From Promethearchaeia archaeon (GTDB taxonomy: Archaea; Asgardarchaeota; Lokiarchaeia; Sigyniarchaeales; SOKP01), in assembly GCA_029856045.1 (NCBI GenBank), contig JAHQWG010000048.1, forward strand, positions 31,298-95,297: a stretch of DNA of 64,000 bases, in the 5' to 3' direction. The notes beneath the pieces were generated by a model. It had not been told where the DNA came from. It saw nothing but the letters and a program-made list of their open reading frames with translations, and did not search any database. The translations under genes were made by a program, and so were the position numbers. Each line of letters begins with the position of its first letter. Position 1 is the first letter of the stretch. Of this stretch, positions 2,195-32,557 are shown piece after piece.

Positions 2195-2704
2195 CTAATC
2201 CATTGCGTATTTTTTCGTCCAGTTCTCTGCTTTCTTATCAAATTTCGATTTTTGTTTAAAATATTGCTCTCCTGCTTCATGATTTAAAGGATCGCCGGGA
2301 TTAAAAAATGGTGGTTCCACATGCATCATTCCCTTCAATGCTTCGACAATATTTGTTAATGTTTTAGAAGGAGTCCACCCCGAAGCCCCAGTAGAGGCAT
2401 CAACCTTACCGACTAGATCGGGATTAATAAGATCAAGACAAATATTCAATTTTCCTGGTGGAATTGAAGAGTCGATATTAGGATGCCACATTAAAGTATG
2501 AGCATATACATATGGAGGTGCAAAAGGATAGTTCTCGGGCATTTTTATCTCGAATAAAAATTTACCTCCTGAATACGGAATTCCTGGCTTTCCTATTATT
2601 GAAAGCCTAAGGTGGTCTATTGATCTTCCCCAAGGTTCGATAATAACGAATTGATTATCTTTAAATGCCTCAAGCGCCTCTGCATAATCAGTTTCTTCTC
2701 TAAT
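2195..2704 (-). CDS. Ubiquitin-conjugating enzyme E2 (UBC fold), probable ATT start at 2704
   Basis: YPFAPP, HPNI, catalytic ICLDLI, WTPS, DPLN. The frame stays open 54 codons upstream of the track ATG (2542) and encodes the conserved core (IIGKPGIPYSGGKFLFEIK). An in-frame TAA follows an AGGTG RBS and there is no NTG start. Confidence 0.9.
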   Translation of the reverse strand: MREETDYAEALEAFKDNQFVIIEPWGRSIDHLRLSIIGKPGIPYSGGKFLFEIKMPENYPFAPPYVYAHTLMWHPNIDSSIPPGKLNICLDLINPDLVGKVDASTGASGWTPSKTLTNIVEALKGMMHVEPPFFNPGDPLNHEAGEQYFKQKSKFDKKAENWTKKYAMD

Positions 2705-2849
2705 TTTTTACACCTAATAAGTTTAATTGTAATCTCAATTTAAAATTAAATTAAAAATAATTATGTTAAGTAATTTTATAATATTAGAATATAGTTAAAA
2801 ATGTATTTAATATATAAACATGCTAATTTTTTTGCAAAATTTTCTAAAT

Positions 2850-4249
2850 TCGGACCCTTACGCGAGTTAAATTGTCATTATTCTTTATAGAATAATAATT
2901 GTGAATCTAACTCAAAAAATTCGAATATTTCCCTCAAAGAATCAAAAACTGATTCTGTGGGATTTGTCGGAAAAATGTCGATTAATATATAATTTTGCGT
3001 TAGCTGAAAGAATAGAAAATTGGAATAAAAACAAATATAAGCCAAAAGACGACAAAAAATATATATCTTATTTAGAGCAACAAAATAAATTAACTTTACT
3101 TAAAAAGAAATATCCTGAATATAAATGGGTTTATTCTAAAGTTTTACAAATGATATTGAAAAGACTCAACTCTGATTATAAATCGTTTTTTACGAAATGG
3201 ATAAATGGAGATAAACAAGCTCGACCACCTAAATTTAAATCAAAAAAAAGATTTACAACAATCTGTTATAATCAGAGTGGTTTCAAATTAGAAAAGAAAG
3301 TGATACAATTTTCGCATAAACACCCTTCAAAAATTCCATTAATATTTTCTCTTAAATATCCTTATTGTGCTGTTGAAATTGTTAAACAGGTGGAAATTTT
3401 TAAAGATTTCCAAAATCGATGGTTTATTTCTATTACATATGAAGTTCAAGCACTAAAATACAAAGATAACGGGCTATATCAAGCAATTGATTTAGGAGTT
3501 TCAAATATTGTATCTGCGGTGAATTTGCACTCTAAATTTATTCAAATTAAAAATAAAAGAGCAGATCTCTATTGGAAAAAGAAAATAGAAAGCATTCAAT
3601 CAAGGCGAGACCACTGTAAAAAATATAGTAAAAAGTGGAGAAAATATCATTACAAATTCAGGAAGATGCATCAAAAGTGTGCTTATCAAATGCGTGATTT
3701 TCAACATAAAATTTCAAAACATATTGTGACACATACCAAAGCAAATACAATAATTGTCGGAGACCTAAATGTGAAAGAGATGGCTAAAAAGAAAAAATCT
3801 ATGGGAAATGCTCAAAAAAATAAAGCTAACAAAACTTTAAACTATTCTGTTAACAATACGGGATCGTTGGGTCGTTTTGTCGAATTCTTAATTTACAAGG
3901 CGAGACTTGTAGGGAAAAGAGTTATAAGAATTGACGAATCGTATACTACTCAACGATGTTCAATTTGTGGAAAGCTTAAAAAAAGAAATCTTTCCGAAAG
4001 AATTATTCAATGCGATTGTGGAAATTATCTTGATCGTGATCTTAATTCTGTGATCAACATTATGATTAAATTTTTGAAACATAAGCATTGTTACGTATTC
4101 CTATCGCATCAACCCTCCTTGAACGAGGAATCCTTTCTACAAAAAAAGGATTTGCTACGATACACAGCCCCATCCGTAGTAAAAGTGATGGCGGACTCGT
4201 AGTGATACTAAAAAATTAGAAATATTTACTAATTTTTCAGTAAGTTCAA
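2850..4249 (+). mobile_element. IS200/IS605-family, tnpB-only (IS1341-like) element; left boundary approximate
   Basis: tnpB ORF with no tnpA. Subterminal hairpin at 4207-4241 (ACTAAAAAATTAG/CTAATTTTTCAGT) followed by TTCAA, a typical right end. A hairpin ATTATTCT-TTAT-AGAATAAT lies just before the start. Confidence 0.65.
2901..4202 (+). CDS. tnpB: RNA-guided endonuclease TnpB
   Basis: HTH_OrfB N-terminus (KIRIFP...CRLIYNFAL), RuvC-I AIDLG, RuvC-II region IIVGDL...IDESYTT, zinc finger CSICG...CDCG, RuvC-III DRDLN. Confidence 0.95.
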   Translation: MNLTQKIRIFPSKNQKLILWDLSEKCRLIYNFALAERIENWNKNKYKPKDDKKYISYLEQQNKLTLLKKKYPEYKWVYSKVLQMILKRLNSDYKSFFTKWINGDKQARPPKFKSKKRFTTICYNQSGFKLEKKVIQFSHKHPSKIPLIFSLKYPYCAVEIVKQVEIFKDFQNRWFISITYEVQALKYKDNGLYQAIDLGVSNIVSAVNLHSKFIQIKNKRADLYWKKKIESIQSRRDHCKKYSKKWRKYHYKFRKMHQKCAYQMRDFQHKISKHIVTHTKANTIIVGDLNVKEMAKKKKSMGNAQKNKANKTLNYSVNNTGSLGRFVEFLIYKARLVGKRVIRIDESYTTQRCSICGKLKKRNLSERIIQCDCGNYLDRDLNSVINIMIKFLKHKHCYVFLSHQPSLNEESFLQKKDLLRYTAPSVVKVMADS

Positions 4250-4270
4250 TAATACATCTCGATTTTTATT
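4090..4270 (+). ncRNA. Predicted omegaRNA (reRNA) of TnpB; scaffold overlaps the ORF 3' end and the guide starts at about 4250
   Basis: Established TnpB architecture. The ORF 3' tail is GC-richer and is followed by the right-end hairpin and TCAA. Boundaries are inferred. Confidence 0.5.
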
Positions 4271-4384
4271 AATAAATCTTTTTAATAAATTTTTAGTTTA
4301 GTTAATTTCCTTACCATTTAATTTAATGGACCAATGAAATATTTTTAAGAATATATTTAATAAATAGCTTAGTATTATTACCAA

Positions 4385-6301: not shown

Positions 6302-6386
6302 TCCTAACTTCTCTTTTTAGAAAAACTAAAAAATAAATATTAATTTACACATATTAATTGATATTTGTTGGAAAAAATTATAACAA

Positions 6387-6518
6387 CCCCTGGTAGCTCA
6401 GTGGTAGTAGCGCACGGCTGTAGATTTTTATCGCGTATTGAGAAAAAGATCAATGAAAATACGTCAGCTAAAGCGAATAGATACCGTGTGGTCGCTGGTT
6501 CAAATCCGGCCCAGGGGA
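6387..6518 (+). tRNA. tRNA-Tyr(GTA) with a 59-nt intron at 37/38 (6424-6482)
   Basis: Acceptor CCCCTGG/CCAGGGG-A, anticodon stem CACGG/CCGTG, T arm GCTGG-TTCAAAT-CCGGC. BHB helix CTGT/ATAG with bulges AGA and ATA. Confidence 0.95.
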
Positions 6519-6556
6519 CTTTCTATTTTTTTTTATTTTTAGAAAACTTAGAAAAT

Positions 6557-7645
6557 TTAAAGCTTTTCAGTTGATTTCTCCCATTTTTTAAATTCTGAGT
6601 CAAGTGTTGCGATAAAATCATCTGTTTTATCTACATCGAACTCTATTATATCTTTATCAATTTTAAAATTAAATTCCTCAGCCCAATCAAAAATAAAGTC
6701 CCATAGATCGCTTTCTTTCATCTTAAGAACCTCAGCCATCCGAGATACCTCCAATCGCCGTGATACTCTAACTATTGTCGCCAACTTTGCTAGCCTTTGT
6801 TGTTGTAGCTGCTCTTGTTGTTGTTCTTCCGTGATGGGTTGTAATTTTTCTGGAACTGCTTTTATTTCTTTTTCCATTGGTGTGATGGGTTGTAATTTTT
6901 CTGGAACTGCTTTTATTTCTTTTTTAGTCGGTCTAAATTTATATAAGCTTATCGTAACAACAATATATCCGCACCAAGTGATTTGTATTGGAAACATATA
7001 GTAAAACCTTAAAATACCTGTTGTGATTATTAATAATATGCATCCAAGTATCCCAAATACAATAGAACTATTTACTTTTAACAATTGTGCAAATAAAATT
7101 GAGAGAAAAATGAAAAGGGGGCTACTCCATAAAAGAATGAGATAGAAAAAAGAATAGGGGGCTACTCCATAAAACACTGTTAGTATAAAAATTATAAGAA
7201 AGATTAAATGAATTAATCCTATCCTGCGAAATATTCGTTTGTATTTTTCCTGAATAACCGAATATGTTAATGTATCCTTTAATTCCATCAATTTATATAA
7301 ATATAAGTTAATTGTAACCAAATAAAAACCAACAAATAAAGGTAATAATACTACATCAGCAGAACCAAAAAAAGCATCACCAATAATCAGGTTAATTCCA
7401 ATTCCAATACATCCAAGTGCCCCTGATACTATAGCTTTATTTACTCTTGTAAAAAAAGCAAATATAATTGAAAGAAAAATAAAAAAAAGACCTTGCCAGC
7501 CACCATAAACGAAAAGCATATATCCCCCTCCAGGTGGGATTGGTAAAAACGCGACTATTATAAAAAATATAATAACGATTAAATGTTTTAATCCAATGTT
7601 GCGAAACTTCTGTTTATTTTTCTCATTATCCAATAAATTTCTCAC
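6557..7645 (-). CDS. Polytopic membrane protein (two internal 4-TM repeats) with a C-terminal winged-helix/PCI-like cytoplasmic domain
   Basis: Repeated FR.IGL.HLI TM blocks and a C-terminal LEVSRMAEVLKM...WAEEFNFKID segment. The likely start is TTG at 7633 after GGTGA. Confidence 0.7.
   Translation of the reverse strand: MRNLLDNEKNKQKFRNIGLKHLIVIIFFIIVAFLPIPPGGGYMLFVYGGWQGLFFIFLSIIFAFFTRVNKAIVSGALGCIGIGINLIIGDAFFGSADVVLLPLFVGFYLVTINLYLYKLMELKDTLTYSVIQEKYKRIFRRIGLIHLIFLIIFILTVFYGVAPYSFFYLILLWSSPLFIFLSILFAQLLKVNSSIVFGILGCILLIITTGILRFYYMFPIQITWCGYIVVTISLYKFRPTKKEIKAVPEKLQPITPMEKEIKAVPEKLQPITEEQQQEQLQQQRLAKLATIVRVSRRLEVSRMAEVLKMKESDLWDFIFDWAEEFNFKIDKDIIEFDVDKTDDFIATLDSEFKKWEKSTEKL
6831..6924. 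repeat. Exact tandem duplication with a 51-nt period (KEIKAVPEKLQPIT x2) in the linker
   Basis: GTGATGGGTTGTAATTTTTCTGGAACTGCTTTTATTTCTTTTT occurs at 6831 and 6882. Confidence 0.95.
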
Positions 7646-12821: not shown

Positions 12822-13142
12822 TTCTAATCGAATTTTTATTTTCTCTTTAATATTAAATGTAAAACCCATTTCTAAGAGTTATTTAATCTTAGATTTTAAA
12901 AAGTTTTAAGAACATGCTCTATTATTTATTTTTTTTTAATTCTCTTATTTTTTCTACTTTTAACTAAATTCCATTAATTTATCGTGTTGAATAGTTATGA
13001 ACAAAAAATAAAAATTCGGTGGATAATTGAGAAAAAAAATTAAAAATAAACATAATTTTTATTTGATAATTGTGACAATATTTAAAAACATATAGAGAGA
13101 GATCTATACATTTAATTAAACTTCATATGGGTGTAATAATCT

Positions 13143-15989
13143 ATTAAACGAAACAATTTTAAATTAGTCTTATTGATCTCTTTGATCATTTTTTTTAGTG
13201 GCTTCACAGCTATTTCTCTCTATAATAACATCAATTTATTGAAGGATAGTGTCGTCGAAGATTTAGAGAGATTTTCAGATGAATTAAAAATTTCTGCTTG
13301 GAATTGGAGCACGACCAAGGTTGTCTCCACGGAAAGCACAGAGGATTCTGGATATCCAACAATCGCAGTGGACGGTTCCGGAAACGTGCACATCGCATGG
13401 TATGATGAGACGGAATATGGTGGATCGGGAGATGATTGGGATATATTTTATAAGCACTGGAACATGACCACGGCGAACTGGACTACGACGGAGGTGATCT
13501 CCACGGAAGGCACTAATGTTTCTTATACTCCAACAATAGCAGTTGACGATTACGGAAACGTATTTATTGCATGGGAAGATCTTGCGGATTATAACAATTC
13601 GGGAGTGGACCGTGATATATTTTATAAGTATTGGAACGCGACTACGGCGACCTGGACCACAACCGAAGTCGTTTCCACGGAAAGTACTGGTTCTTCTTAT
13701 TTTTCAACAATGGCAGTGGACGGTTCAGGAAACGTACATATTGCGTGGAATGATTATACGAATTATAAAAGTTCAGGAGGGGATCTTGACATATTTTATA
13801 AGTATTGGAACGCAACCACGGCGACTTGGAACACGACCGAGGTGGTCTCCACGGAAAGTACTGCTTTTTCTTCAGAGCCAACAATAGCAGTGGACGGTTT
13901 CGGAAACGTATATATTGCGTGGGAGGATCAAACGGATTATAAAAGTTCAGGAGCGGACAATGATATATTTTATAAGTATTGGAACGCGACTACGGCGACT
14001 TGGAATACGACCGAGGTCATCTCTAATGAAAGCACTAGTGATTCTTGTTCTCCAACATTAGCAGTGGACGGTTCCGAAAACGTGCACATTGCGTGGCATG
14101 ATGAGACGGAATATGGTGGATCGGGAGATGATTGGGATATTTTTTATAAGTATTGGAACGCAACCACGGCGAACTGGACTACGACGGAAGTGATCTCCAC
14201 CGAAAGCACTGATGATTCTTTTTCTCCAACATTAGCAGTGGACTTTTTGGGAAAATTGCACATTGCATGGCAGGATGAAACGAATTATGGCGGTTCGGGA
14301 GGTGATTATGACATATTTTATAAACACTGGAACGCGACCACGGCGACTTGGACCACGACCGAGGTAATCTCCACGGAAAGCGCTGGTAATTCTCATTCTC
14401 CAACAATAGCAGTGGACTTTTTGGGAAAAGTGCATATTGCATGGACTGATAAAACGAATTATGGCGGTTCGGGAGGCGATGATGATATATTTTATAAAAA
14501 ATTCATATTATCTCCATCGGATCCATCAATAGTAATAAATAATGGAGATGCGAGTACAAATTCCACCTTAGCGAATCTCACGCTCTCGGCGGATGGAGCA
14601 GAAGAAATGTGTTTTAGAAATGGGACATCCATATTTTGGACTAATTGGGAAGCATACGCCACAACAAAACAACTATATTTAGAAGGCTCTACAAATAATA
14701 CGGGATATTCAATCTATGTGAAATTTCGAAATGCAACAGGAGTATCTCCCCAAGTCGGTGATAGCATTTTATTTTTAATTTTCACACCCTTGAATCCATC
14801 AATAATTATAAATAACGGAGATGCAAGTACAAATTCCACCTTAGTGAATCTCACGCTTTCAGTGGATGGAGCAACAGAAATGTGCTTCAAAAATGGGACG
14901 GATGTTACATGGACCAGTTGGGAGGCGTATATTACGACAAAACAGTTGTATTTAGAAGGGTCTACAAATAATACGCAATATTCAATCGATGTGAAGTTTC
15001 GAAATGCAACAGGAGAGACCTCCCCAGTTGGTGATAGCATCCTCTATTTAATTTTCACACCATTGAATCCATCAATAATTATAAATAATGGAGATGCAAC
15101 TACTGATTCTGTCTTAGTGACTCTCACGCTCTCGGCGGATGGAGCAACAGAAATGTGCTTTAGAAATTGGACGGGTGGTTCATGGACCAGTTGGGAGGCG
15201 TATAGTACAACAAAACAGTTGTATTTAGAAGGCTCTACAAACAATACGGAATATTCAGTCTATGTGAAATTTCGAAATGCAGCAGGAGAAACTTCCCCAG
15301 TCGGTGATAGCATCCTATATTTAATTTTCACACCATTAAATCCATCAATAGTAATAAATAATGGAGATGCAACTACTGATTCTATCTTAGTGAATTTAAC
15401 GCTCTCGGCGGATGGAGCAACAGAAATGTGCCTTAGAAATGGGACGGGTGGTGCCTGGACCAGTTGGGAGGCGTATAGTACAACAAAACAGTTGTATTTA
15501 GAAGGCTCTGTAAACAATGTGGTATATTCAATCTATGTGAAATTTCGAAATGCAATAGGAGAGATTTCCCCAGTCGGTGATAGTATCCTATTCTTAATTT
15601 ACACACCATCGAATCCATCAATAATTATAAATAATGGAGATGCGAGTACTGATTCTACCTTAGTAACTCTCACACTCTCGGTGGATGGAGCAGACGAAAT
15701 GTGTTTCAGAAATGGAACAACTGGTACATGGACCAGTTGGGAGTCGTATGGTACAACAAAACAGTTATATTTAGAAGGCTCTGTAAACAATATGGAATAT
15801 TCAATTTATGTGAAATTTCGAAATGCATTAGGAGATACTTCCCCAGTCAGTGATAACATTCTATATTTGATCACGGAAGAAACGGTAATCCCTGGATATC
15901 CAGTCGGATTTATTATCATTTCATTACTTGCAGGAATAGGAGTAATTGTAATTCTTAATAAATCTAAGAGAATAAAATTGAGAAACTAA
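13143..15989 (+). CDS. Cell-surface glycoprotein: signal peptide, 7-blade beta-propeller, 5 Ig-like repeats and Loki-CTERM-like anchor; probable ATT start at 13143
   Basis: 7 x 58-aa repeats, 5 x 91-aa repeats, many N-X-S/T sequons and a C-terminal IPGY + TM + KR tail. The n-region (I/M)KRNNFK lies upstream of the track TTG (13173). Confidence 0.88.
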   Translation: MKRNNFKLVLLISLIIFFSGFTAISLYNNINLLKDSVVEDLERFSDELKISAWNWSTTKVVSTESTEDSGYPTIAVDGSGNVHIAWYDETEYGGSGDDWDIFYKHWNMTTANWTTTEVISTEGTNVSYTPTIAVDDYGNVFIAWEDLADYNNSGVDRDIFYKYWNATTATWTTTEVVSTESTGSSYFSTMAVDGSGNVHIAWNDYTNYKSSGGDLDIFYKYWNATTATWNTTEVVSTESTAFSSEPTIAVDGFGNVYIAWEDQTDYKSSGADNDIFYKYWNATTATWNTTEVISNESTSDSCSPTLAVDGSENVHIAWHDETEYGGSGDDWDIFYKYWNATTANWTTTEVISTESTDDSFSPTLAVDFLGKLHIAWQDETNYGGSGGDYDIFYKHWNATTATWTTTEVISTESAGNSHSPTIAVDFLGKVHIAWTDKTNYGGSGGDDDIFYKKFILSPSDPSIVINNGDASTNSTLANLTLSADGAEEMCFRNGTSIFWTNWEAYATTKQLYLEGSTNNTGYSIYVKFRNATGVSPQVGDSILFLIFTPLNPSIIINNGDASTNSTLVNLTLSVDGATEMCFKNGTDVTWTSWEAYITTKQLYLEGSTNNTQYSIDVKFRNATGETSPVGDSILYLIFTPLNPSIIINNGDATTDSVLVTLTLSADGATEMCFRNWTGGSWTSWEAYSTTKQLYLEGSTNNTEYSVYVKFRNAAGETSPVGDSILYLIFTPLNPSIVINNGDATTDSILVNLTLSADGATEMCLRNGTGGAWTSWEAYSTTKQLYLEGSVNNVVYSIYVKFRNAIGEISPVGDSILFLIYTPSNPSIIINNGDASTDSTLVTLTLSVDGADEMCFRNGTTGTWTSWESYGTTKQLYLEGSVNNMEYSIYVKFRNALGDTSPVSDNILYLITEETVIPGYPVGFIIISLLAGIGVIVILNKSKRIKLRN
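13305..14504 (+). repeat. Seven 174-nt intragenic repeats (propeller blades)
   Basis: W.TTEV.STE...P.IAVD..G..HIAW.D...Y..SG.D.DIFYK occurs seven times. Confidence 0.95.
14514..15870 (+). repeat. Five 273-nt intragenic repeats (Ig-like stalk)
   Basis: PSIIINNGDA...GA.EMC..NGT...WT.WE.Y.TTKQLYLEGS occurs five times. Confidence 0.95.
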
Positions 15990-18447: not shown

Positions 18448-18748
18448 AACAAAAAAAAATAAAATCATCAATAATTACTAGAAAAAGAGTATATCTAAAA
18501 AAAAATAAAAAAAAAAATCAGTAAAATATTTACTTTAATTTATTTATCTTTAATAACACGTTAATTATAATAAAATTATTTGTTTCTAAAATTGGCGTCA
18601 AATTTAGATTTTTTTTACATTAATATGTACATTGTCGATTTTCCCGTTTTTCTCGGGAAAAGAAAAACTTTAAATAGTTTTCGAGTTCATATAGAACTTA
18701 AGAAGTTTAAAACTTTGATTTAAATATTCGGATACTGGAGAAATAAAA

Positions 18749-18814
18749 ATGTATTCTTATACCTCAACCCTTAACCCTATTGTTAGAAACTACATCTCCC
18801 TCATTCTAGAATAG
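18749..18814 (+). CDS. Candidate 21-aa small ORF (MYSYTSTLNPIVRNYISLILE) inside a fold-back RNA
   Basis: GGAG RBS at 18737, ATG...TAG, and an upstream BRE/TATA-like sequence GAAAAACTTTAAATA at about 18662-18676. Confidence 0.35.
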   Translation: MYSYTSTLNPIVRNYISLILE

Positions 18815-18967
18815 TTTTTAAATTATTTCTTCAAACCGAATATCTCCCTTTTCCTTATTACGCCGACATTTTTAATCATTTTACCAAATTTAAAAATCTA
18901 GTTTGAATTATCAAGAAATTGTAAAAATACTTCTTTTTTCTAGATTTTTATTTTATATCTCTCCTTT

Positions 18968-20083: not shown

Positions 20084-20239
20084 TGAAAAAAAACTCGGGA
20101 TCTTTTGAATAAAACTAGATATTGATTTTTTTTTATATTTTGGACTTTTTAAAGTTTAAGTATTTATATTAGAAGAGTTATTAATGGGTTAGAGCCGATT
20201 AAGACAAAATAAATTCGAATAAAGATATATATAAAATAA

Positions 20240-21307: not shown

Positions 21308-21330
21308 AATTAGAAATAAAATGGAAAGGA

Positions 21331-22146: not shown

Positions 22147-22175
22147 ATTATATCATTATTGTTGTGTAATAGAAA

Positions 22176-22979
22176 TTAGATATTTATTTTTTTAGCCGTA
22201 TTATATAAGTAGCTATAATAATATGTTGCAGCGGGTCCAAAGGCAAGGTGGTCTGTAACTATTCCAAAATATGAAATTTTTTCAAAGAATTGTTGAGAAA
22301 AGATTAAAAATGCGTTTTTTCCACCATCAATAACAATACCATTTCCAAATATTTGATCTCTTTCTCTAACTTCTGCAATTTCGGTGTATTTTGTTAAAAT
22401 TTCTTTATAACTATCATCTTTAACTGATTTTTCTTCAACTAATAGTTTGATTTCAATAACGCCTCTTGCACGAGCCTTCTTTATTGGTTCATAACAATCT
22501 ACTAAAAATTCCAGGTCTGGAGAAGCAAAAGATATCGATTTTTTTGCTAGTTTAAATAGACTTAAGACAGTATTTAAACAAGTTTCCTTACCTCTATGTA
22601 TATAAAGTGCTATTTTAATTGGACTTTTTTGGCTTTGATATATTGGATTTAACTCTCTTATAACAAGATTAGAATCTTCTTCATAATCTTTTAACATTTG
22701 CTGTTTGGCAATTAATAAGGCTTCATCGGGTGATTTTGCATGATATTTTGAGGGTCTAGATTCTTCTTCTTTTATAATAAAAGATTTTTCTTTTTCCAAA
22801 ATGCTTAAAATATTATAAATTCGGGAATATGGAACACCAGATACATCAGAAAGATTGCGTGCATCCATAGCTCCCTCTGAAACAAGTGCTAAATAGATAG
22901 AAATTTCATAATCCGTCAAACCAATTCTCTTTAGACTTTCTTTGACATTTTCTGGAATTCCACTTTCTTCTTGCTCCAT
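22176..22979 (-). CDS. TrmB-family transcriptional regulator
   Basis: GLTDYE..IY.AL...SGVPYSRIY.IL HTH plus a PLD-like C-terminal domain. Confidence 0.92.
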   Translation of the reverse strand: MEQEESGIPENVKESLKRIGLTDYEISIYLALVSEGAMDARNLSDVSGVPYSRIYNILSILEKEKSFIIKEEESRPSKYHAKSPDEALLIAKQQMLKDYEEDSNLVIRELNPIYQSQKSPIKIALYIHRGKETCLNTVLSLFKLAKKSISFASPDLEFLVDCYEPIKKARARGVIEIKLLVEEKSVKDDSYKEILTKYTEIAEVRERDQIFGNGIVIDGGKNAFLIFSQQFFEKISYFGIVTDHLAFGPAATYYYSYLYNTAKKINI

Positions 22980-23209
22980 TTTTTTATAACCTTTTCATTA
23001 AAGGTAATCCTAATTTTTTCTTAAGATTAATTCAAAAATAAATTAATTAAATATTAATAGTTTTTCTGTACTATTAAAAGTTCATCACTTTATTATTTAA
23101 GAGTAATTTTAATAACTTAAAATTATTGAGGGAGAGATCGATAAAAGGATTAGATATAAAAGGGGCACAAAATAAATTTCTTTTAGAGAAATTAAAGATG
23201 TTATAAGTT

Positions 23210-24394
23210 ATGGTTGATGAGTTAGATATTTTAACAAAAAAATTAGAGGAAAGAAATATTAAAATTGAAATGGTTCTTCAAAAACTAGACATTTTCAAGA
23301 TTGCAACGCCATCTTGGGGTTATTCAGAAGGTGGAACTAGATTTCATATATTTCGGGATAAATTTGCAGCAAGAGATTTAATGGAGAGGCTAGATGATGC
23401 AGCGCAGGTGAACAAATTTACAGGGATTGCGCCAGATGTTGCTATTCATATACCATGGGATAAAGTTGATGCATTCAATGAGATTGCCGATTATACTCAG
23501 AATTTAGGTCTAAAAATAACAGCAATAAACCCAAACTTATTTCAAGAAGAAGAATATAAATTTGGAAGCATAACCAATTCTAAACCAGAGATTAGAGAGA
23601 AGGCGATTGGCCATATCATGGAATGTATTGATATTGGTCGAATTTTAAGGATTCCTTATCTAAGTCTTTGGTTCGCCGATGGGACAAATTTTCCCGGTCA
23701 GGGAGATTTTATAAAACGAAAAAAGTGGATGTTACAATCACTTCGAGAGGTTTATTCAGCAATGCCTGATTTTATGAATATGTTATTAGAATATAAGTTT
23801 TTTGAGCCTGCCTATTATCACACGGATTTACCAGATTGGGGACAATCCTATATATTTTGTAAGAATCTGGGAGAAAGAGCAAAGGTTTTAGTGGATTTGG
23901 GGCACCATCCTCAAGGGACAAATATTGAATTCATTATTGCAAATCTGATAGATGAAGATATATTAGGAGGATTTCATTTAAATTGTAGAAAATATGGCGA
24001 TGACGATTTAACAACAGGTTCATTGAATATATATGAATTATTTCTAATTTTTCATGAATTAATTAAAGGGAATGCTGATGATTACAGAAAGACCGCATTT
24101 ATGTTGGATCAAAGTCATAATATTAAACCAAAGATCGAAGCAATGATTCAATCAGTAATTTCTACACAAGAAATATATACTAAAGCTCTTACAATTGATA
24201 ATGAACGTTTAGAAGAAGCCCAGGAAAATCAAGATATTATCAGAGCAGAATCATGTTTAAAAGAAGCATTTTTTACAGATGTCAGTTCAATATTACTAAA
24301 ATACAGAGAGGATAAAGATATACCAAGAAATCCTCTTAAGATGTTTATAGATTCTGGATATAAAGCTCAAATATCAAAAAAAAGAAATATCTAA
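23210..24394 (+). CDS. rhaI: L-rhamnose isomerase (RhaI, xylose-isomerase-like TIM barrel)
   Basis: TPSWGYSEGGTRF, HIPWD, WFADGTNFPGQ, EYKFFEP, DLGHH, KYGDDDL, DQSHN. Confidence 0.9.
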   Translation: MVDELDILTKKLEERNIKIEMVLQKLDIFKIATPSWGYSEGGTRFHIFRDKFAARDLMERLDDAAQVNKFTGIAPDVAIHIPWDKVDAFNEIADYTQNLGLKITAINPNLFQEEEYKFGSITNSKPEIREKAIGHIMECIDIGRILRIPYLSLWFADGTNFPGQGDFIKRKKWMLQSLREVYSAMPDFMNMLLEYKFFEPAYYHTDLPDWGQSYIFCKNLGERAKVLVDLGHHPQGTNIEFIIANLIDEDILGGFHLNCRKYGDDDLTTGSLNIYELFLIFHELIKGNADDYRKTAFMLDQSHNIKPKIEAMIQSVISTQEIYTKALTIDNERLEEAQENQDIIRAESCLKEAFFTDVSSILLKYREDKDIPRNPLKMFIDSGYKAQISKKRNI

Positions 24395-24590
24395 AAAAAG
24401 AGAACAATATTTATTACTGAATTAATAAAAAAATATATTTTAACTATTTAATTCCACAATTTTTTCTTATTTGATATATCTTATTTTTAAAAATTAATTT
24501 TTTTATTTATGAAATTGAAAATTTTTATATAGAAAGTAAATTTCATTTTCCATAGTATAAGTAAGTTTATCAAAAAATAACATAATAAAA

Positions 24591-25040
24591 ATGGAAGTTG
24601 TTAAAAAAATGGACCCTATTGATATAAGAATTTTAGAAGAATTAAAAGATAATTCTAGAAAGTCTTTTAATGATATTGCTGAAAGTGTTGGCAGAACTGA
24701 GGCAACTGTTCGAAGAAGAGTTAATCATTTGAAAGAGGGTGGAGTAATAAAAAGGTTTACAATTGTATATGAAGCAGATAGTAAACCCAAAATAAAGGCA
24801 ACTGTAAAAATTGAGCCAGATTTTAAGAGGATAAAAGAAATTTGTGCAGCACTTTCGAAAATTGAAGAGGTTACTGATATCTGGCGCCTAAGTGGAGATT
24901 GTGGTATCTTTTTAAAAGTTGAAATTGATTCTATAGAGAAATTTAATCCATTAATCGAAACAAAAATCTCACAAATTGATGGAATATCTATTAAAGAAAC
25001 ATGTTTTATCACACAGGAGATAAAGAGTAAATTTCTTTAG
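24591..25040 (+). CDS. Lrp/AsnC transcriptional regulator
   Basis: MDPIDIRIL..L..NSRKSF..IA...EATVRRRV..L...GVI HTH plus a RAM domain. Confidence 0.93.
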   Translation: MEVVKKMDPIDIRILEELKDNSRKSFNDIAESVGRTEATVRRRVNHLKEGGVIKRFTIVYEADSKPKIKATVKIEPDFKRIKEICAALSKIEEVTDIWRLSGDCGIFLKVEIDSIEKFNPLIETKISQIDGISIKETCFITQEIKSKFL

Positions 25041-25203
25041 TTTCTTCTGCCGCTTTCATTTGCCCTTCACTAGCTAAGGGTTTTTAATACCCAACTCAAT
25101 TTTTATATCTTCTTCTTTTATTTTAATTACAGCTTGTTTTATAAAAGATAAAAATAATAAAATATTTTCTAGTTTAACAGTTTGAAATCATCTATAAATT
25201 AAA

Positions 25204-26535
25204 ATGAGCTATAAATTCACAAAAGAGGAATTATCAAAATTACTTTTTGATTATAATTCCCTTAAAGATGTGCTCCCTATATATAAACCTTCAAAAGTAT
25301 ATATTTGGGATGAAACTTTACGTGATGGCGAGCAATCTCCTGCAGTCTTCCTTACATTGGATGAAAAAATCCATCTTTCAAAACTTCTTGATGAAGCTGG
25401 AGTAAAATTGATAGCAGTAGGTTTTCCTGCTGTCTCTAAATCGGAAAAAGATATTGTTAGGGCATTAATGAGAGAGAAACATAACAATGCATCTATATTA
25501 GCTATTGCAAGACCAAAAAAAGAAGATATTGATGCTTGTATCGATAGTGATGCAAAAGAGATTGTAATTTTTATGCCAATTTCCGATTTTTTTATGAAAC
25601 TACTAAAATTGGATGAAGAGCAAGAATTGTCAATAATCGAAGAAGCGATTATTTATGCTAAAGATCATGGTTTAAAGGTAAATTGGGTATCTGAAGATTG
25701 TACAAGAGCAAAATTGGCCCATATCTTTAATGTGTTCAACACAGCGATAGACACTGGTGCGGATCGTATTGTAATAGGTGATACTGTTGGCGTATTAACT
25801 CCATATTCAACAAGATTCCTCGTCAACCAGATTATGGAAAATGTAATAAGAAAAAATAAAAACACGGCAGATATTGGAATACATTGCCATGATGATTTCG
25901 GATTAGCCACAAGTAATACCATTGTAGGAGTATTTGAGGGTTGTGTTTATCCTCATACATGCATTAATGGTTATGGCGAAAGGGCTGGAAATGCAGCTCT
26001 CGAAGAGGTTGTTTTAATATTGGAAAGGAATGGAATTGATACTGGTATAAAAATGGACAAATTAATGGAGTTAAGTGAAATAACAGAGAAATATTTTAGC
26101 CAACCCCTCGCCTTAAATAAAGCAATAGTTGGACGTTATGCCTTTTCTCATGAAAGTGGACTTCACATCGCAGGAATTCTTGCACATCCTTTAAGTTATG
26201 AACCAATAAATCCAAAAATAATTGGTAGACGACGAAAATTTTATCTTGGAAAGGGGAGTGGTTCTCATTCAATTATTAACGCAATTAAAGAGAAGATTAA
26301 AGTACTTGATTTAGATATTCCTGATGAGATTATTAAAAAGATTGTAGCTGCAGTAAAAGCAGCCCATGAAGAATCGAGTAAGGGAGATATACAAAAAAGT
26401 TTTCAAATAATAAAGAAAGAGTTAGATAAGATATCCAAGGGAGTTTCTGATAAAGATTTTTTTGATATTGTTAATAAATATGCCCAACCATATGTACCTG
26501 ATGAATTTAAGCCAAAAAAAAAAATAAACGAATAG
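25204..26535 (+). CDS. Homocitrate/isopropylmalate synthase family (DRE-TIM) protein without a regulatory domain
   Basis: DETLRDGEQ, HCHDDFGLA, GYGERAGNA, HESGLH. Confidence 0.9.
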   Translation: MSYKFTKEELSKLLFDYNSLKDVLPIYKPSKVYIWDETLRDGEQSPAVFLTLDEKIHLSKLLDEAGVKLIAVGFPAVSKSEKDIVRALMREKHNNASILAIARPKKEDIDACIDSDAKEIVIFMPISDFFMKLLKLDEEQELSIIEEAIIYAKDHGLKVNWVSEDCTRAKLAHIFNVFNTAIDTGADRIVIGDTVGVLTPYSTRFLVNQIMENVIRKNKNTADIGIHCHDDFGLATSNTIVGVFEGCVYPHTCINGYGERAGNAALEEVVLILERNGIDTGIKMDKLMELSEITEKYFSQPLALNKAIVGRYAFSHESGLHIAGILAHPLSYEPINPKIIGRRRKFYLGKGSGSHSIINAIKEKIKVLDLDIPDEIIKKIVAAVKAAHEESSKGDIQKSFQIIKKELDKISKGVSDKDFFDIVNKYAQPYVPDEFKPKKKINE

Positions 26536-26673
26536 AATGATATTATTATCAGTTTTCTCGTTAGAAGATGATTTTAATAAACAGTTGTAATAAAAATTTT
26601 AATAAATAGTTAGAAATTTATTTGAAATTTTTTATTAAATATTTAGTATTCATTATTTTTATGAGAGATTTCA

Positions 26674-28254
26674 ATGTCTAAACAAGAAGATATAATTGCT
26701 GGAAAGTTAATTGGTAAAACAACAACACACACGGTTAATTTGTTAATTGTGGATAAAAATGTAGGACGAAATGATCATTTGGTAATTTATACTGATTCTG
26801 ATAGTAATGAAGACAAAAATTATTATTTATTTAAGATAATTGATATCTGGAATGATAAACAAGGATTAATGGCAACACTAAAAGTTCTCGGCCATATGCC
26901 GAAAAGACCCTTTAAGATTGGAACAGAAGTTTATCTTGCTAAAAAGAAGCAAATCATAGAAACTTTAGGGATTGATAATCCCGAAGAAGAATCATTATAT
27001 TTTGGGTCACTACTCGGTTATTCTAAATATGATGTGCACTTATTAATAAAAAATTTTGGTAGAATTTTTATTACGGGTAAATCTGGCTCGGGTAAATCAT
27101 ATACTATGGGAGTGTTAATTGAAGAATTCCTCAAAAAAGGAATCCCTGTAGTCATTTTTGATCGACATGGTGAATATTCAAGTTTAAAAATTTCTAGAGA
27201 AATTTCAGAATCTGATGAAGAAATCCCTGCTGAAGATTCAGAACCTGAATATTGGGATATAAGTAAATCTTCAGAACCAATTGAAGAATTAACAAGTATT
27301 ACTTCAGATTCCGAAATGGAAATTCCAATTGAAGAATTAGAAAAGGAAAAAATAAATCCCAGTGAATTTGTTGAAAAAATAATAGAATTTGCTGATTTGA
27401 ATATGAATGAGGGAGCGGATGTGGACATAAAATACATTTTTTCTTTAGATGCAACTGATTTAGTATCTTCAAATTTATGTACAATTATAAATTTTAGAGG
27501 TTTACCATTGGAACTTCAAGAGGTTATTGCCAATGATATTCTTATGAAATTATATAATGCAAGCACCTCAAAACAAATTCAGCCATTCTATCTTTTTATA
27601 GATGAGGCTCATCTTTTTGCAGGTAAAAAAAAAACAGACACATCTGAAACTGTAAAACTATTTTCTCAAGAAGGAAGGAAATTTGGAGCAAATCTCGTTA
27701 TCTCTACTCAAAAACCCCAATTATTAGATGTTACGATAAGAGGTCAGGCAGGAACATGGATAATACATCAATTAACTGATATTAGAGATGTTGATATAAC
27801 TGTTTCAAGTGCTGAAGATTTAGGTCCAGAATATAAAGAAGAAATTCAAAGATTAGACCCAGGTGAATGTATAATTTGTGGCGATGCCGTTAAGATAGCA
27901 CCGTTATTTCTAAAAATTAGAAAACGAAAAACCGAACATGGAGGTATAGGATTTAATCCTCTCGATTTTCTTTCCAAAGACACTATTGAAGATATAAAGA
28001 AGAAAAGACTAAAAATTTTAGAAGCCAAATCAGAAGGTGAATTGGCAGAAGCGGAAAATCTCTTTCAAAAATATTTTACTGGAAAAGAAATACAAAAATC
28101 GGCTAAAGAAATAGAACTTTTAACAAAAATGATTGAAGAATTAGATGCTGAAGTTAAAATATGGAAAGATAAATATAAAAAACAAAAAGAAAAGGCAAAT
28201 AAAGCTACAAAATTAGCAGAAGAAGCTTTAATTGAAGCAAAGAGAAAATCTTAA
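26674..28254 (+). CDS. HerA/FtsK-family ATPase (DUF87) with HAS-barrel, acidic insert and C-terminal coiled coil
   Basis: Walker A GKSGSGKS, DRHGEY, IDEAHLF, EGRKFG...STQKP. Confidence 0.9.
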   Translation: MSKQEDIIAGKLIGKTTTHTVNLLIVDKNVGRNDHLVIYTDSDSNEDKNYYLFKIIDIWNDKQGLMATLKVLGHMPKRPFKIGTEVYLAKKKQIIETLGIDNPEEESLYFGSLLGYSKYDVHLLIKNFGRIFITGKSGSGKSYTMGVLIEEFLKKGIPVVIFDRHGEYSSLKISREISESDEEIPAEDSEPEYWDISKSSEPIEELTSITSDSEMEIPIEELEKEKINPSEFVEKIIEFADLNMNEGADVDIKYIFSLDATDLVSSNLCTIINFRGLPLELQEVIANDILMKLYNASTSKQIQPFYLFIDEAHLFAGKKKTDTSETVKLFSQEGRKFGANLVISTQKPQLLDVTIRGQAGTWIIHQLTDIRDVDITVSSAEDLGPEYKEEIQRLDPGECIICGDAVKIAPLFLKIRKRKTEHGGIGFNPLDFLSKDTIEDIKKKRLKILEAKSEGELAEAENLFQKYFTGKEIQKSAKEIELLTKMIEELDAEVKIWKDKYKKQKEKANKATKLAEEALIEAKRKS

Positions 28255-28277
28255 GAATTTAAATGCTTCGATTACAC

Positions 28278-29660
28278 TTATTTTTTTTTAAGTAATTTTT
28301 TAATCTCTTCAATTTTATTGGTAGCATTTTCTAAATCATACTTCAATTTTTTCATTTGTTTATTGTAATCATTTTGTTTAATTTTTCCGTCTCCTTTCTT
28401 TTTCTTAAGGAAGTTAATTAAATTCTTAACTGAATTTATTTTACTCTCTAATCCTTCTAATTCAGCATTTAATTCTTTTTTAGACTGTTTCTTTTTTGTT
28501 GAAGGCATTCCTTTCGGTCTTGGGGGTAACGGCTTTTCAGTTGATGGTTTTTTAGGTAATTCAGTTAATTCTGATAATTCATTGTCCTCTTCAACGGTTT
28601 CCGCTTCAACTTCTCTTTTTAATTTCTCAAAATCTATTCCAAGATCTGGGGCTTCTTCTAACTGTGGCGGTTGTTGAACCTTTTCTTGCATTTCTTTGAT
28701 TGCCTGTAATTCAATGATTTCATCTTCTGATCCGATTACTGAATCTATTAATTTATTTACAACATCACTTAAAGCATTTAATTCATCTAATACTGAATAC
28801 AGAGTCTGTATAAGGTCACTTTTTGAGGAGATTTTAATTTCTGACTTTACCGTAATTGGGGAATACATTTGAGAACCAACCTCCCCTTCAGCATCAGAAA
28901 GTGAAGGATGTAAACTTGAACCATAACCCAGTCCAGGTTTTTTGGATGGAATTGTAGAAATCCCTTTTTTCTTCATTGTTAATCGATATTCAGAAATCAA
29001 CCAAGTAAATAAATTTAAGGCAAGTTTTTTATGTTGATCATTTTCAATTCCACAGCCAATCTCATCTCTAAATATTTCATAACTACCAATTGCACATACT
29101 AATCCATTATCAGCTTCTGATACAATTATCAAAGGAACTGAGAAGGGATCTGCATCTTGATCACTCATTGCAATTGGAACAGAACCCCCAATTGTTGTAA
29201 GAGAACAACCCGCACGATAGCAAATTTCATTAATTTCTTCAGTGATTTGATGAGGTGGTGTAAATGTAGAGGCTTTTGGTAAATTTTCCATGCCATAATT
29301 ATTAGGTGAAAGCACTTGATCATTTTCAAATGTAATTCCAAACCGTTCCGCTAGAGCGGAAAGGTTAGTTTGACGACCCTTATCACCTCCAGCATGACTT
29401 AATAATAATAATCCACCACCATCTTCTCTCACCCAATTCTCAATCTCATTTATTTCCTGAGGTGCAATCTTTGCAAAATCAGGACAAGCAAACACCAAAA
29501 TATCGTAAGGTTTTAGAGTTTTATGGGTAATTGGAAATTCTGAAAATTGATATGATTCAAAACCTTGAGAATCCAAGAGTTGTTTTATCGTTTTGTAGTT
29601 GATATCAATTCTCCCTCTTGGTTTATGGCTCTCATTCCAAGCTATGAAATTTCCAACCAA
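28278..29660 (-). CDS. Cytosolic GIFT (GldG/IFT52-like) domain protein with a Pro-rich linker and C-terminal coiled coil
   Basis: WNESH...YDILVFACP...EINEIENWV..GGGLLLL...TNLSALAERFGITFEND. No signal peptide. Confidence 0.7.
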   Translation of the reverse strand: MVGNFIAWNESHKPRGRIDINYKTIKQLLDSQGFESYQFSEFPITHKTLKPYDILVFACPDFAKIAPQEINEIENWVREDGGGLLLLSHAGGDKGRQTNLSALAERFGITFENDQVLSPNNYGMENLPKASTFTPPHQITEEINEICYRAGCSLTTIGGSVPIAMSDQDADPFSVPLIIVSEADNGLVCAIGSYEIFRDEIGCGIENDQHKKLALNLFTWLISEYRLTMKKKGISTIPSKKPGLGYGSSLHPSLSDAEGEVGSQMYSPITVKSEIKISSKSDLIQTLYSVLDELNALSDVVNKLIDSVIGSEDEIIELQAIKEMQEKVQQPPQLEEAPDLGIDFEKLKREVEAETVEEDNELSELTELPKKPSTEKPLPPRPKGMPSTKKKQSKKELNAELEGLESKINSVKNLINFLKKKKGDGKIKQNDYNKQMKKLKYDLENATNKIEEIKKLLKKK

Positions 29661-29778
29661 TTGTTAAAAGTCACCTTTTTTCATTAAAAATAAAAATTAT
29701 ATAAATAATCAATAAATCTTCTTGCTTTAATCTTTATTTTTATTTCATTTAAAATTTTATTTCAATTCTGACGTTTAA

Positions 29779-30903
29779 TTATTTATCATTGTTTAAAACT
29801 AGTTGGCATTTATCGCCAATCATCAAATTATCTTTAGAAAGATTATCAATTTTAACATAACTCCCGATAATTGAATTTTCTGTAATTATATTTGAGAGAT
29901 AGGCGCCATCTTCGATTATGCAATTTTTTAAGATACATTTCTTTAATTTACAATTTTTACCAATCGAAACATATGGTCCAATAATAGAATGAGTAATTTC
30001 AGTGTTTTCTTCAATATTTACTGGTGTGTTAATTACGCTATATTTGAAATTTCCATATTGTGTTGGGGATTTTTCATTTATTTGAGCCATATGCTCTAAT
30101 ATATAGCGGTTGCCTTTCAAAAGTTCGGTAGTTCTCCCAAAATCCAAAATCCCTTTTTTCAATTCGACTGCAGCGATTTTGTAGTTTTGATCTATCAAAT
30201 CTTGAAGTGCTGGAGTCATATAAATTTCACCAGAATCTTCAGATTTGTTGTCCAAATAATTTTTTATGTTGTTAAATAAAGCTTTGGTTGTTTTTCTACT
30301 AAATGCATAGATTCCTGCGATTGCCAGATCAGAGATAAATTCCTTAGGCTTCTCAACCAAATTCTTGATTATCATATTATCATCAACAGACACAATTCCA
30401 TAAGAACTAGCTTCTTCTTTTGGAACTCTCATAACGGTTATTATTCCATCCACATCTGATTCATAATATCGATATAAAATAAATGAATACTCATCAAGTG
30501 GAATCATATCACCTAAGAAAATCAAACATCCATCTTTTTTTTCATTTATACTTTTTTTATTTAAATCATCTTCTTGAAAATTGAATTGTTTCTTGGCTAG
30601 ATAAATAGCTTCGCCGAGACCCCAATAATATGGTACATCTCCATCAAAACCTCTGGGAGTTTGTTCAATAAATGTTAAATTAAAATCCTTTGAGTAATTT
30701 TTATTTATGTAATCAATTATTTGCTCTTTCTTATAACCAACGATCAATATTAATTCGGTACTCTGATCGAATGTGTCTTTTAATTTATCTAAAATGTGAT
30801 CTAAGACAGTCTTTCCTGCAACTTTGATAAAAGCCTTAGGTTTCTTAAAAGTAAAAGGTCTTAAACGCGTTCCTGTGCCTGCTATTGGTCCAATAATTTT
30901 CAT
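29779..30903 (-). CDS. Sugar-phosphate nucleotidyltransferase with C-terminal hexapeptide repeats
   Basis: AGTGTRLRPFT..KPK, LGD, EKP, and a left-handed beta-helix tail. Confidence 0.92.
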   Translation of the reverse strand: MKIIGPIAGTGTRLRPFTFKKPKAFIKVAGKTVLDHILDKLKDTFDQSTELILIVGYKKEQIIDYINKNYSKDFNLTFIEQTPRGFDGDVPYYWGLGEAIYLAKKQFNFQEDDLNKKSINEKKDGCLIFLGDMIPLDEYSFILYRYYESDVDGIITVMRVPKEEASSYGIVSVDDNMIIKNLVEKPKEFISDLAIAGIYAFSRKTTKALFNNIKNYLDNKSEDSGEIYMTPALQDLIDQNYKIAAVELKKGILDFGRTTELLKGNRYILEHMAQINEKSPTQYGNFKYSVINTPVNIEENTEITHSIIGPYVSIGKNCKLKKCILKNCIIEDGAYLSNIITENSIIGSYVKIDNLSKDNLMIGDKCQLVLNNDK

Positions 30904-30970
30904 ATTAAGGATACAATTCTTTCTATGCTATTTTTATAAAAAAATCTTTAAAATTTAAAACTATTTTTAT

Positions 30971-31747
30971 TCAATAAAACTCTGATTTATCCGAATCAAA
31001 AATGCGTTGAAGAGTCCCAAATAAAATGTCTAAACCATCCTCTCTTAACGTTGTGATTGGAATTAATTCAGATGTAGAGCCGAGTTGAGAAAATACTTCG
31101 GATATTAAAAGAGATAATTCACGTATTAAACCTTTTTCCCTTTCATTGGTAGCTTCACTTAATTTTTGAAAGTCTGTGCTCCACTCGAGAACCATATCAA
31201 TTAAATCATCATCTAATAAATCGATTTTGGAAAGAGCGTTAATTTGTGGAATATTTATAAAACGATATTGAACTGAAGCAGCTAATAGCAGGGTAGAAAT
31301 AAACCCATTCGGTCGTTTTACCATATTGGAATCAAATAAAAAAGTTGTTGATCTCTGAACATCACCGAAACCTAAGGAACTTGCGATAATTGGACCCACT
31401 TCCCTGAAAGCAAATAATTCTAACTGACCTGCAGTGTCAATTAAAACCCAATCAGGTTGATATTGACCGATTTCATACTTAATATCGTCAATAAAATTTA
31501 TCATTAGATCCGAGGCTAAAACCATCCCTCCATTTGGACCTAAATTATACTTCCTCATAACTTCATCTAACGTGATATAATCCCTTATATCAATCTCTGG
31601 ATTAAACTTTAAATCTAAAGCTCCCGGATCCAAGTTAATTGCAATTACAGTTATTTCTGAATCTCTCATCGAGATGTAGTGTTTTAACTGAGCAACCAAT
31701 GTGGATTTTCCGCTTCCGGCAGGTCCGATTACATAATTAAATAACAT
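30971..31747 (-). CDS. GPN-loop GTPase
   Basis: GPAGSGKST, NLDPG, LGPNGG, DTAGQLE, SKID. Confidence 0.95.
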   Translation of the reverse strand: MLFNYVIGPAGSGKSTLVAQLKHYISMRDSEITVIAINLDPGALDLKFNPEIDIRDYITLDEVMRKYNLGPNGGMVLASDLMINFIDDIKYEIGQYQPDWVLIDTAGQLELFAFREVGPIIASSLGFGDVQRSTTFLFDSNMVKRPNGFISTLLLAASVQYRFINIPQINALSKIDLLDDDLIDMVLEWSTDFQKLSEATNEREKGLIRELSLLISEVFSQLGSTSELIPITTLREDGLDILFGTLQRIFDSDKSEFY

Positions 31748-32041
31748 TGGGCTTGAAAATTGTGATTTGCTCTGTAATAAGTAAAATAATCTTTTAAAGA
31801 TTATAAAATCTATTGATACGATTTGTATTTTATTTTTTACTCAATGAAAATTATTCTATATTTAATAAATTCATTAAAAGAAGGATATTATTGAGTCGCT
31901 CTAATGCAATTAAAGAGAGTAGAGATGAAAAATATTAGAATTATTTGTGAAAAAAAATATAAATGAAAAGAAAATTCTAAAAAAAAGCATTTATATTTGT
32001 AAAACCTATTATACTTAGGTATAAGAAGGGTTTCTACCGAT

Positions 32042-32197
32042 TTGAGAAATAAACAAACCATATTGAATGATAAAACAGGTTTAAAATTATGCGAAAAGTG
32101 TGGAAGTATATTAGTTAACCGCGTATTAATCTTAAAAAACGGCAGAAAACAGAAAATACATCAGTGCATTGTCTGTAGGCATTGGTATCCCGTTTAA
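32042..32197 (+). CDS. Small zinc-ribbon protein (51 aa), not in the ORF track
   Basis: TTG start; MRNKQTILNDKTGLKLCEKCGSILVNRVLILKNGRKQKIHQCIVCRHWYPV has two CxxC motifs. Confidence 0.75.
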   Translation: MRNKQTILNDKTGLKLCEKCGSILVNRVLILKNGRKQKIHQCIVCRHWYPV

Positions 32198-32293
32198 ACT
32201 ATTATATTTTAATTTTAAAATATTTATTATTTCTTAGAAAATTTTAAATTTCTAAGATTTTATTTATTTAATAAAATTATTATTCTTAAATAG

Positions 32294-32557
32294 GTGATAA
32301 AAATTAATCTTGAATCTACTGTAAGTGATAAAGGATTAACCACAATACCAAAGGAGATCCGAAAAAAACTCAATATTAAAAAGGGAGATAAATTATATTG
32401 GATTTTTAAAGAACAAGAAAGAACTGAATTAATTGTTATTAAAAAACCACTTAAATTTCTAAAAGGAAGATATGCTCAAAAGGATCTAACTTATGAGAAA
32501 CTAGAACACAAAGCTGATGAACTAATTGAAAAAAAGGTGGAAAATAAATCCCGCTAA
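32294..32557 (+). CDS. AbrB/MazE/SpoVT-family antitoxin (VapB-like)
   Basis: STVSDKGLTTIPKEIRKKLNIKKGDKL. The track GTG lies inside the GGTGA RBS, so the start may be the ATT at 32303. Confidence 0.9.
   Translation: MIKINLESTVSDKGLTTIPKEIRKKLNIKKGDKLYWIFKEQERTELIVIKKPLKFLKGRYAQKDLTYEKLEHKADELIEKKVENKSR

Follow-up and report, generated by a model that had tools for sequence, protein, structure and literature searches.

Probable translation starts at ATT, ATA and ATC codons behind strong Shine-Dalgarno sequences in a Lokiarchaeial genome

We analysed candidate non-canonical translation starts in a 64,000-nucleotide stretch of an uncultured Promethearchaeia archaeon of the Lokiarchaeia (contig JAHQWG010000048.1; G000:C47:31298-95297), hereafter the window, and in the genome to which it belongs. 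Labels in G, C, L and P denote the genomes, contigs, loci and public proteins compared, G000 being the genome under study (3.34 Mb, 55 contigs, 29.4 % GC). ATH stands for ATT, ATA or ATC (AUH in RNA), whilst ATG, GTG and TTG are termed canonical starts. A sequence-only reading of the window had proposed ATH starts for four of its genes, encoding an E2 ubiquitin-conjugating enzyme (ATT 2704, minus strand), a surface protein (ATT 13143), a VapC toxin (ATC 32548) and possibly an AbrB-type antitoxin (ATT 32303). All four codons are present, and the first three genes each have a GGTG-type Shine-Dalgarno (SD) sequence 6-9 nt upstream and no usable canonical start. The 3' terminus of the 16S rRNA is GGATCACCTCCT, and the full SD is therefore GGAGGTGATCC. 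The E2, surface protein and VapC genes most likely start at ATH approximately 7 bases behind a strong SD, with AbrB as a probable fourth case.

The E2-like enzyme (169 aa; Pfam UQ_con and orthologue alignment) is encoded at 2195..2704 on the minus strand, with ATT at 2704-2702. Its leader (2708..2715) comprises AGGTG at 2715-2711, which is complementary to the 16S end and lies 6 nt before the ATT, an in-frame TAA at 2710-2708 and then AAA, an order that is identical in sister genomes G001, G002 and G004. The stop-to-stop frame contains 170 codons, and the earliest ATG, GTG or TTG is ATG 2542 at codon 55. UQ_con spans residues 22-162, and a start at ATG 2542 would therefore remove 54 residues of the UBC fold. 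Orthologues from 32 genomes of the order could be aligned from codon 1, where 15 carry ATG, three TTG, 13 ATT and one ATC. GGTG or GTGAT was found 6-8 nt upstream in 14/14 ATH orthologues versus 1/18 with ATG or TTG, a contrast that is overstated because the orthologues share phylogeny; start codon thus co-varies with SD strength across the E2 orthologues. Among ATH lineages, codons 2-54 displayed a ratio of non-synonymous to synonymous differences (pN/pS) of 0.24, indicative of purifying selection, and pS for E2 between this genome and its sisters was approximately 0.47. In seven ATH lineages the internal Met is replaced by Phe, so that no downstream canonical start exists there. Public relatives of this E2 are labelled Lokiarchaeota or Promethearchaeota. 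The closest, P0053 (97 % identity), begins at the internal Met and is a 115-aa fragment that lacks a third of the fold, whilst the related call P0001 begins at a GTG within the SD. Both bear out the earlier expectation that such genes are mis-annotated.

The surface protein (948 aa) is encoded at 13143..15989 on the plus strand, and its ATT supplies the K/R-rich n-region of a signal peptide. Upstream lie GGGTG (13129-13133), two in-frame TAA codons (13134-13139; the SD and stops together spanning 13129..13139) and TCT, placing the SD 9 nt before the ATT. The earliest canonical start, TTG 13173, falls within the hydrophobic core of the signal peptide. Paralogues or orthologues of this gene, two in G004 and one on contig C41 of the same genome, carry ATG in place of ATT 13143; their leader is nearly the same (KR..KFKL..LL), and GGGAG or GGGGG stands ahead of the ATG. 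Because these homologues carry ATG, the ATT is a change specific to this genome.

The remaining two cases are the overlapping plus-strand genes vapB and vapC. The AbrB/MazE-type antitoxin (Pfam MazE_antitoxin) is encoded at 32303..32557 if it starts at ATT 32303; the alternative is GTG 32294, which is contained in its SD (AGGTGA, 32292..32297). This GTG is in frame, immediately 3' of a TAG and three codons upstream of the ATT, and had gone unmentioned in the sequence-only reading. The orthologue in G008 has ATG at the codon matching ATT 32303 and TAA in place of the GTG, and that in G024 has ATT; on these grounds ATT 32303 is the likelier start. VapC (146 aa; Pfam PIN at residues 12-126) is encoded at 32548..32988 from ATC 32548. 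Its SD, AGGTGG (32535-32540), lies within the 3' end of vapB and is followed by a TAA in the vapC frame (32545-32547; together 32535..32547), and the earliest ATG, 32572, lies 3' of the Asp in the first PIN strand. VapC orthologues in two other genera (G008 and G024; 55-56 % identity) also carry ATC, behind AAGGTGG or AAGGTGA, whilst more distant paralogues (on C36 of this genome, in G021 and in G008) have ATG at the equivalent codon, giving M-P-L-I-E/D-x-D/S. The gene vapC shares its first 10 nt with the end of vapB (stop at 32555-32557), a layout that would suit translational coupling of toxin to antitoxin. For E2, VapC and the surface protein, no canonical start could encode the conserved N-terminus. 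The in-frame TAA noted earlier before the ATH is present in these same three cases. An in-frame stop at this place is largely a by-product of the motif, since a spacing of 7 nt always puts the TGA of GGTGA in frame. A separate consequence of spacing was seen where GGTG and ATH are 6 nt apart: the internal GTG of the SD is then in frame and is picked as the start by gene callers, adding approximately three spurious residues. This situation was observed at window 32292-32305, in P0001 and in the SDR orthologues of loci L269 and L270.

A genome-wide count was then made of codons lying 5-9 nt after any GGTG that begin a reading frame of 100 codons or more, provided that no canonical start lay between them and the preceding stop or among the nine codons that follow; eight permutation codons of the same composition served as controls. 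ATT was counted 22-25 times, ATA 24 and ATC five times, compared with 55 for ATG, 25-26 for TTG and six for GTG, whilst the eight control codons combined gave 11 (approximately 1.4 each). The totals behind GGTG were therefore 51 ATH versus 86 canonical starts. Spacing after GGTG peaked at 7 nt for ATG, TTG, ATT and ATA alike, and more sharply for the weak codons. The signal was specific to reading frame: GGTG was present 6-8 nt upstream of 40/2319 in-frame versus 10/3433 off-frame ATH codons (odds ratio 6, p = 1e-8), and the in-frame versus off-frame odds ratio was 6-7 overall (p = 1e-8 to 1e-10). The enrichment of ATH at ribosome-binding distance that the sequence-only reading had predicted is thus borne out. 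It was likewise seen for SDs of at least 5 nt, which preceded 33/380 in-frame versus 6/548 off-frame ATH codons, and was not detected for 4-nt SD cores (39/380 versus 43/548). CTG was not enriched behind SDs genome-wide (0/70), and neither were second-position variants. When the count was confined to 2806 likely genes and to SD cores of 5 nt or longer, there were 61 ATH candidates versus 243 canonical starts. Coding score rose from 0.08 (non-coding) upstream of the SD and ATH to 0.26 (coding) downstream. For comparison, where the canonical start is unambiguous, an SD of 5 nt or more precedes only 14 % of genes, and TTG makes up approximately 20 % of unambiguous canonical starts, in line with the earlier remark that TTG is common here. 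Altogether, at least about 50 genes in this genome most likely start at ATH, which is roughly 2 % of open reading frames (ORFs) of at least 100 codons and roughly one-third of GGTG-led genes.

Pfam searches on 20 candidates placed the beginning of a domain 4-22 residues downstream of the ATH, and well upstream of any canonical start, in 12 cases (SDR, Ras-like GTPase, ABC ATPase, AOR, OFOR, response regulator, PFL, ETF-alpha, DUF7065, PAS kinase, CitMHS and Zn ribbon); the other eight were uninformative and none was contradictory. The ATH codon is homologous to an ATG or TTG start of relatives in E2, VapC, the surface protein, AbrB, PFL and OFOR. Two paralogous coiled-coil proteins with similar N-termini were also observed, one starting at ATT (G000:C43:7899-8717, plus strand) 7 nt behind GAGGTG and the other at ATA (C15:13672-14571, plus strand) 7 nt behind AGGTGA. 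A further ATA behind GGTGA, at window position 63726 on the minus strand, was discarded: it mirrors, on the antisense strand, the start of a plus-strand gene and has no Pfam match.

These alignments bear directly on the idea that the genes yield truncated proteins from the first downstream ATG, GTG or TTG, or are pseudogenes that have lost their start. Gene finders do call such products, as with the 115-aa P0053, and the changes in the surface protein and PFL genes are confined to this genome. Truncation would, however, delete helix 1 and strands 1-3 of the UBC fold, the first PIN Asp, the GTPase P-loop and the SDR TGxxxGxG motif, among others; the upstream E2 codons are under purifying selection, and seven ATH-type orthologues lack the internal Met from which a shorter E2 would start. 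ORFs of up to 948 aa are moreover intact and conserved. We regard this explanation as very improbable.

Comparison with sister genomes showed that ATH is retained there in 9/11 informative genes (E2, ETF-alpha, OFOR, aIF1, SDR, Ras GTPase, AOR, DUF7065 and CitMHS). The SDR start is ATT here and ATA in the sisters. For OFOR, G008 and G009 independently carry ATA with GGTGA, and other genera have ATG behind weaker sites. The PFL-like glycyl-radical enzyme (788 aa; G000:C51:22749-22752, minus strand; loci L048 and L142) has ATT here and ATG in three sister genomes and all other orthologues, behind the same AGGTGG, which indicates that ATG was recently replaced by ATT; the gene is otherwise intact. 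It had been allowed that the sites could be read errors absent from sister genomes; the sisters mostly keep the same codons. Sequencing or assembly errors for ATG in this metagenome-assembled genome are accordingly hard to credit at all. The assembly does consist of 55 contigs and two cases were found in this genome only, yet the same ATH codons and SD contexts recur in the independently assembled G001, G002, G003 and G004, in other genera and in closed genomes, and the enrichment is specific to frame and spacing. Contigs of four sequencing runs were also compared over 13050-33040, all of whose bins they covered; among the 40 differences listed (261 more exist), none fell at 13143-13145, 32303-32305 or 32548-32550, and no conclusion was drawn from this.

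The sequence-only reading had suggested, as an alternative, that start codons tune expression. Retention of this kind might also indicate that ATH is selected gene by gene for low or regulated expression, beyond mere tolerance, for example to keep a toxin below its antitoxin or to permit aIF1 feedback like that of infC. VapC ATC is kept in three genera at only 55 % protein identity, the initiation factor aIF1 keeps ATT or ATC in 14 genomes of at least nine genera, and the infC AUU and the poor start context of eIF1 are established precedents for autoregulation (PMC4705826). As a general account, we consider such tuning possible, though the less probable side of an even balance. The ATH genes are functionally unrelated (metabolic enzymes, GTPases, kinases and transporters), the SDR start alternates between ATT and ATA, E2 flips among ATG, TTG and ATH many times in relatives, and the two genome-specific changes (PFL and surface protein) resemble drift. 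For VapC and aIF1 individually, tuning would be plausible.

We further inspected the start-selection machinery. Gene aIF1 (SUI1) is present as a single copy without ATG (G000:C27:190754-191113, plus strand; locus L061 1384-1773). Aligned to the solved Methanocaldococcus aIF1, with functional residues taken from PMC6237735, it has an intact Zn knuckle, and its loop 1 is K-W-G-R versus R-Y/F-G-K in solved aIF1s, remaining basic-aromatic and conserved in character. In 14 genomes of the family, representing at least nine genera, aIF1 can start only at an ATT or ATC codon, which follows a conserved AAGGTTGTGA and precedes the Zn knuckle by five codons. Within this genus the start is ATA, or a GTG inside a conserved AAGGT(A/T)GTG that is present in 4/5 genomes and absent from G003; in the genome under study this GTG is in frame, 4 codons ahead of the ATA, which follows 9 nt later. 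The sister family mostly uses TTG or GTG. Since aIF1 is essential and has only an ATT or ATC start in the 14 genomes, AUH initiation must work there at a level that suffices for its production. The initiator tRNA (C27:220557-220656, minus strand) contains an intron; it has a CAU anticodon and A1:U72, and its anticodon stem bears three G:C pairs. It was found by a survey with ARAGORN and the Rfam tRNA model, whose yield of 25-35 tRNAs is too low to exclude a second, unusual initiator-like tRNA; no matches were obtained with a pattern for contiguous anticodon arms. Neither of the two components inspected, aIF1 and the initiator tRNA, gave any sign of a defect in the fidelity system.

As side observations, the 25-35 tRNAs were the whole-genome yield of that survey and many bear introns. 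One of the intron-containing tRNAs is in the window at 6387-6518 on the plus strand (G000:C47:37684-37815; Rfam tRNA 46 bits; ARAGORN Tyr-GTA, 133 nt), and the 69-aa ORF with a TTG start listed at 6365-6574 is probably spurious because this tRNA sits beneath it.

Usage of ATH differs between lineages. Applied to 1.2 Mb of the closed genome G032, which has 31.2 % GC, belongs to a sister family and carries ATT at its E2 start, the same test gave 5 ATH versus 41 canonical starts, compared with 51:86 here (odds ratio 4.9, p = 7e-4), so that ATH use here is approximately five times that of G032. Three other genera of the family (G020, G014 and G022; 780 kb) gave 5 ATH versus 17 canonical starts when pooled, a sample too small to place the shift. 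The sequence-only reading had attributed ATH starts to initiation machinery (aIF1, aIF1A, aIF2 or initiator tRNA) that is intrinsically less stringent than in other archaea, so that ATH accumulates. The higher ATH share relative to G032 fits this proposal, as do the weak start from which the family's aIF1 is made, which could set a low aIF1 level, and the ATG-to-ATT changes that are still arising in this genome (PFL and surface protein). Set against it are an aIF1 that is single-copy with its Zn knuckle intact, a canonical initiator tRNA, the dependence of ATH starts on SDs of 5 nt or more with a tightly defined spacing of 7 nt, the lack of enrichment of CTG and second-position variants, and the small sample from the three other genera. 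Intrinsically lax machinery seems to us an unlikely account; the ATH share, raised relative to G032, is as it predicts, and aIF1 and the initiator tRNA show no alteration of the kind expected.

SD-dependent near-cognate initiation at AUH is very probably the best explanation of these data. Under this explanation, AUU, AUA or AUC, differing from AUG at the third base only, would take the start position and would be decoded by the ordinary initiator tRNA (Met-tRNAi). A strong SD, of at least 5 nt of GGAGGTGATCC with a GGTG core, would pair with the 16S 3' end and hold the AUH in the P site at a spacing of approximately 7 nt, thereby compensating for the weak codon; the SD would be causally required and AUH efficiency reduced. 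AT-biased mutation (29 % GC) would keep generating ATG-to-ATH changes, which would be tolerated where the SD is strong and long retained in some genes. The strong SDs, the sharp 7-nt optimum and the restriction to third-position variants mean that compensation by the SD fits better than general laxity.

Several points weigh against SD-dependent AUH initiation. All the evidence for ATH initiation comes from genome sequence and, since candidates were located by their SD, the search itself accounts for part of the association between ATH and strong SDs. The E2 contrast amounts to a handful of independent events only, and AbrB has a usable in-frame GTG (32294), so that a canonical start exists there. 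The surface-protein and PFL ATT codons are unique to this genome and may reflect starts lost recently or, with lower probability, errors in the consensus. Finally, approximately 119/177 ORFs with long heads have no SD and ATH and are left unexplained; by eye these are a mix resembling weak-SD ATH starts, frameshifts and spurious ORFs. Separately, three P-loop proteins (ParA/MinD-like, YchF-like and a small GTPase, at G000:C32:121428 on the plus strand, C27:179877 on the minus strand and C36:152436 on the plus strand, respectively) were observed to have conserved N-termini upstream of any canonical start and no clear SD and ATH; they may represent SD-less near-cognate starts, frameshifts or assembly breaks.

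If ATH starts behind strong SDs are genuine, standard gene finders shorten these proteins. NCBI genetic code table 11 lists ATT, ATC and ATA as rare alternative starts. Gene finders limited to ATG, GTG and TTG would truncate or mis-start approximately 2 % of the genes in this genome, including eukaryotic-signature proteins (E2 and small GTPases) that are used in arguments on eukaryogenesis, and mis-annotation extends to relatives across the order. Asgard archaea possess a eukaryote-type start-selection core (aIF1, aIF1A and aIF2), and a gene class that ties strong SDs to weak AUH codons would display the trade-off between SD pairing and codon-anticodon checking in an Asgard system. More speculatively, third-position start stringency might be a tunable, lineage-specific trait in this Lokiarchaeial family, with aIF1, itself AUH-started, feeding back on global stringency, strong SDs rescuing AUH on approximately 50-100 genes including E2 and Ras-like GTPases, and the five-fold difference between families reflecting different set-points. 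We hold this broader scheme, taken as a whole, to be doubtful; if true, it would offer a prokaryotic model for the evolution of start-codon stringency on the line leading to eukaryotes.

The best-known comparable system is Escherichia coli infC, which starts at AUU behind an SD and is autoregulated by IF3 (Butler et al. 1987, reviewed in PMC4705826). As in infC, an AUH a few bases behind an SD replaces AUG here, presumably read by the initiator tRNA, weaker and missed by gene finders. In contrast to infC, the machinery in this archaeon is archaeal and eukaryote-like, with aIF1 and aIF2 and no IF3; bacterial cases moreover concern one or two genes, against some 50 or more here, a third of those led by GGTG, with ATA as frequent as ATT. 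In 30S complexes of Sulfolobus solfataricus, aIF1 discriminates against AUU, as cited in PMC4705826 and PMC6237735. The same factor family is found here and would be expected to oppose AUH initiation, yet AUH starts are common and the family's aIF1 gene is itself AUH-started, or GTG/ATA in this genus. Autoregulation of fidelity factors via their own weak start is documented for the bacterial infC AUU and for the poor Kozak context of eukaryotic eIF1 (PMC4705826). The archaeal aIF1 is the homologue of eIF1, and ATT or ATC is its only possible start in the 14 family genomes, so its near-cognate start may constitute infC/eIF1-like feedback; this genome differs in the in-frame GTG upstream of the aIF1 ATA, and for archaea such feedback is an analogy alone. 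SDs have been reported as rare in Lokiarchaea (reviews PMC7531240 and PMC12993045). In the literature on Asgard archaea and Lokiarchaea we found no systematic report of ATH starts and one single-gene precedent, a 'rare ATT start codon' proposed for the tubulin AtubA of the Asgard Kariarchaeaceae (Sci Adv 2026, PMC13394414). There, much as here, a deposited Asgard protein is too short, in that case by its first beta strand, and an upstream ATT at a plausible ribosome-binding distance restores the fold. Whereas AtubA is a single gene from another Asgard class whose start was called rare, the use of ATH in the present genome is systematic, enriched and conserved, and co-varies with SD strength.

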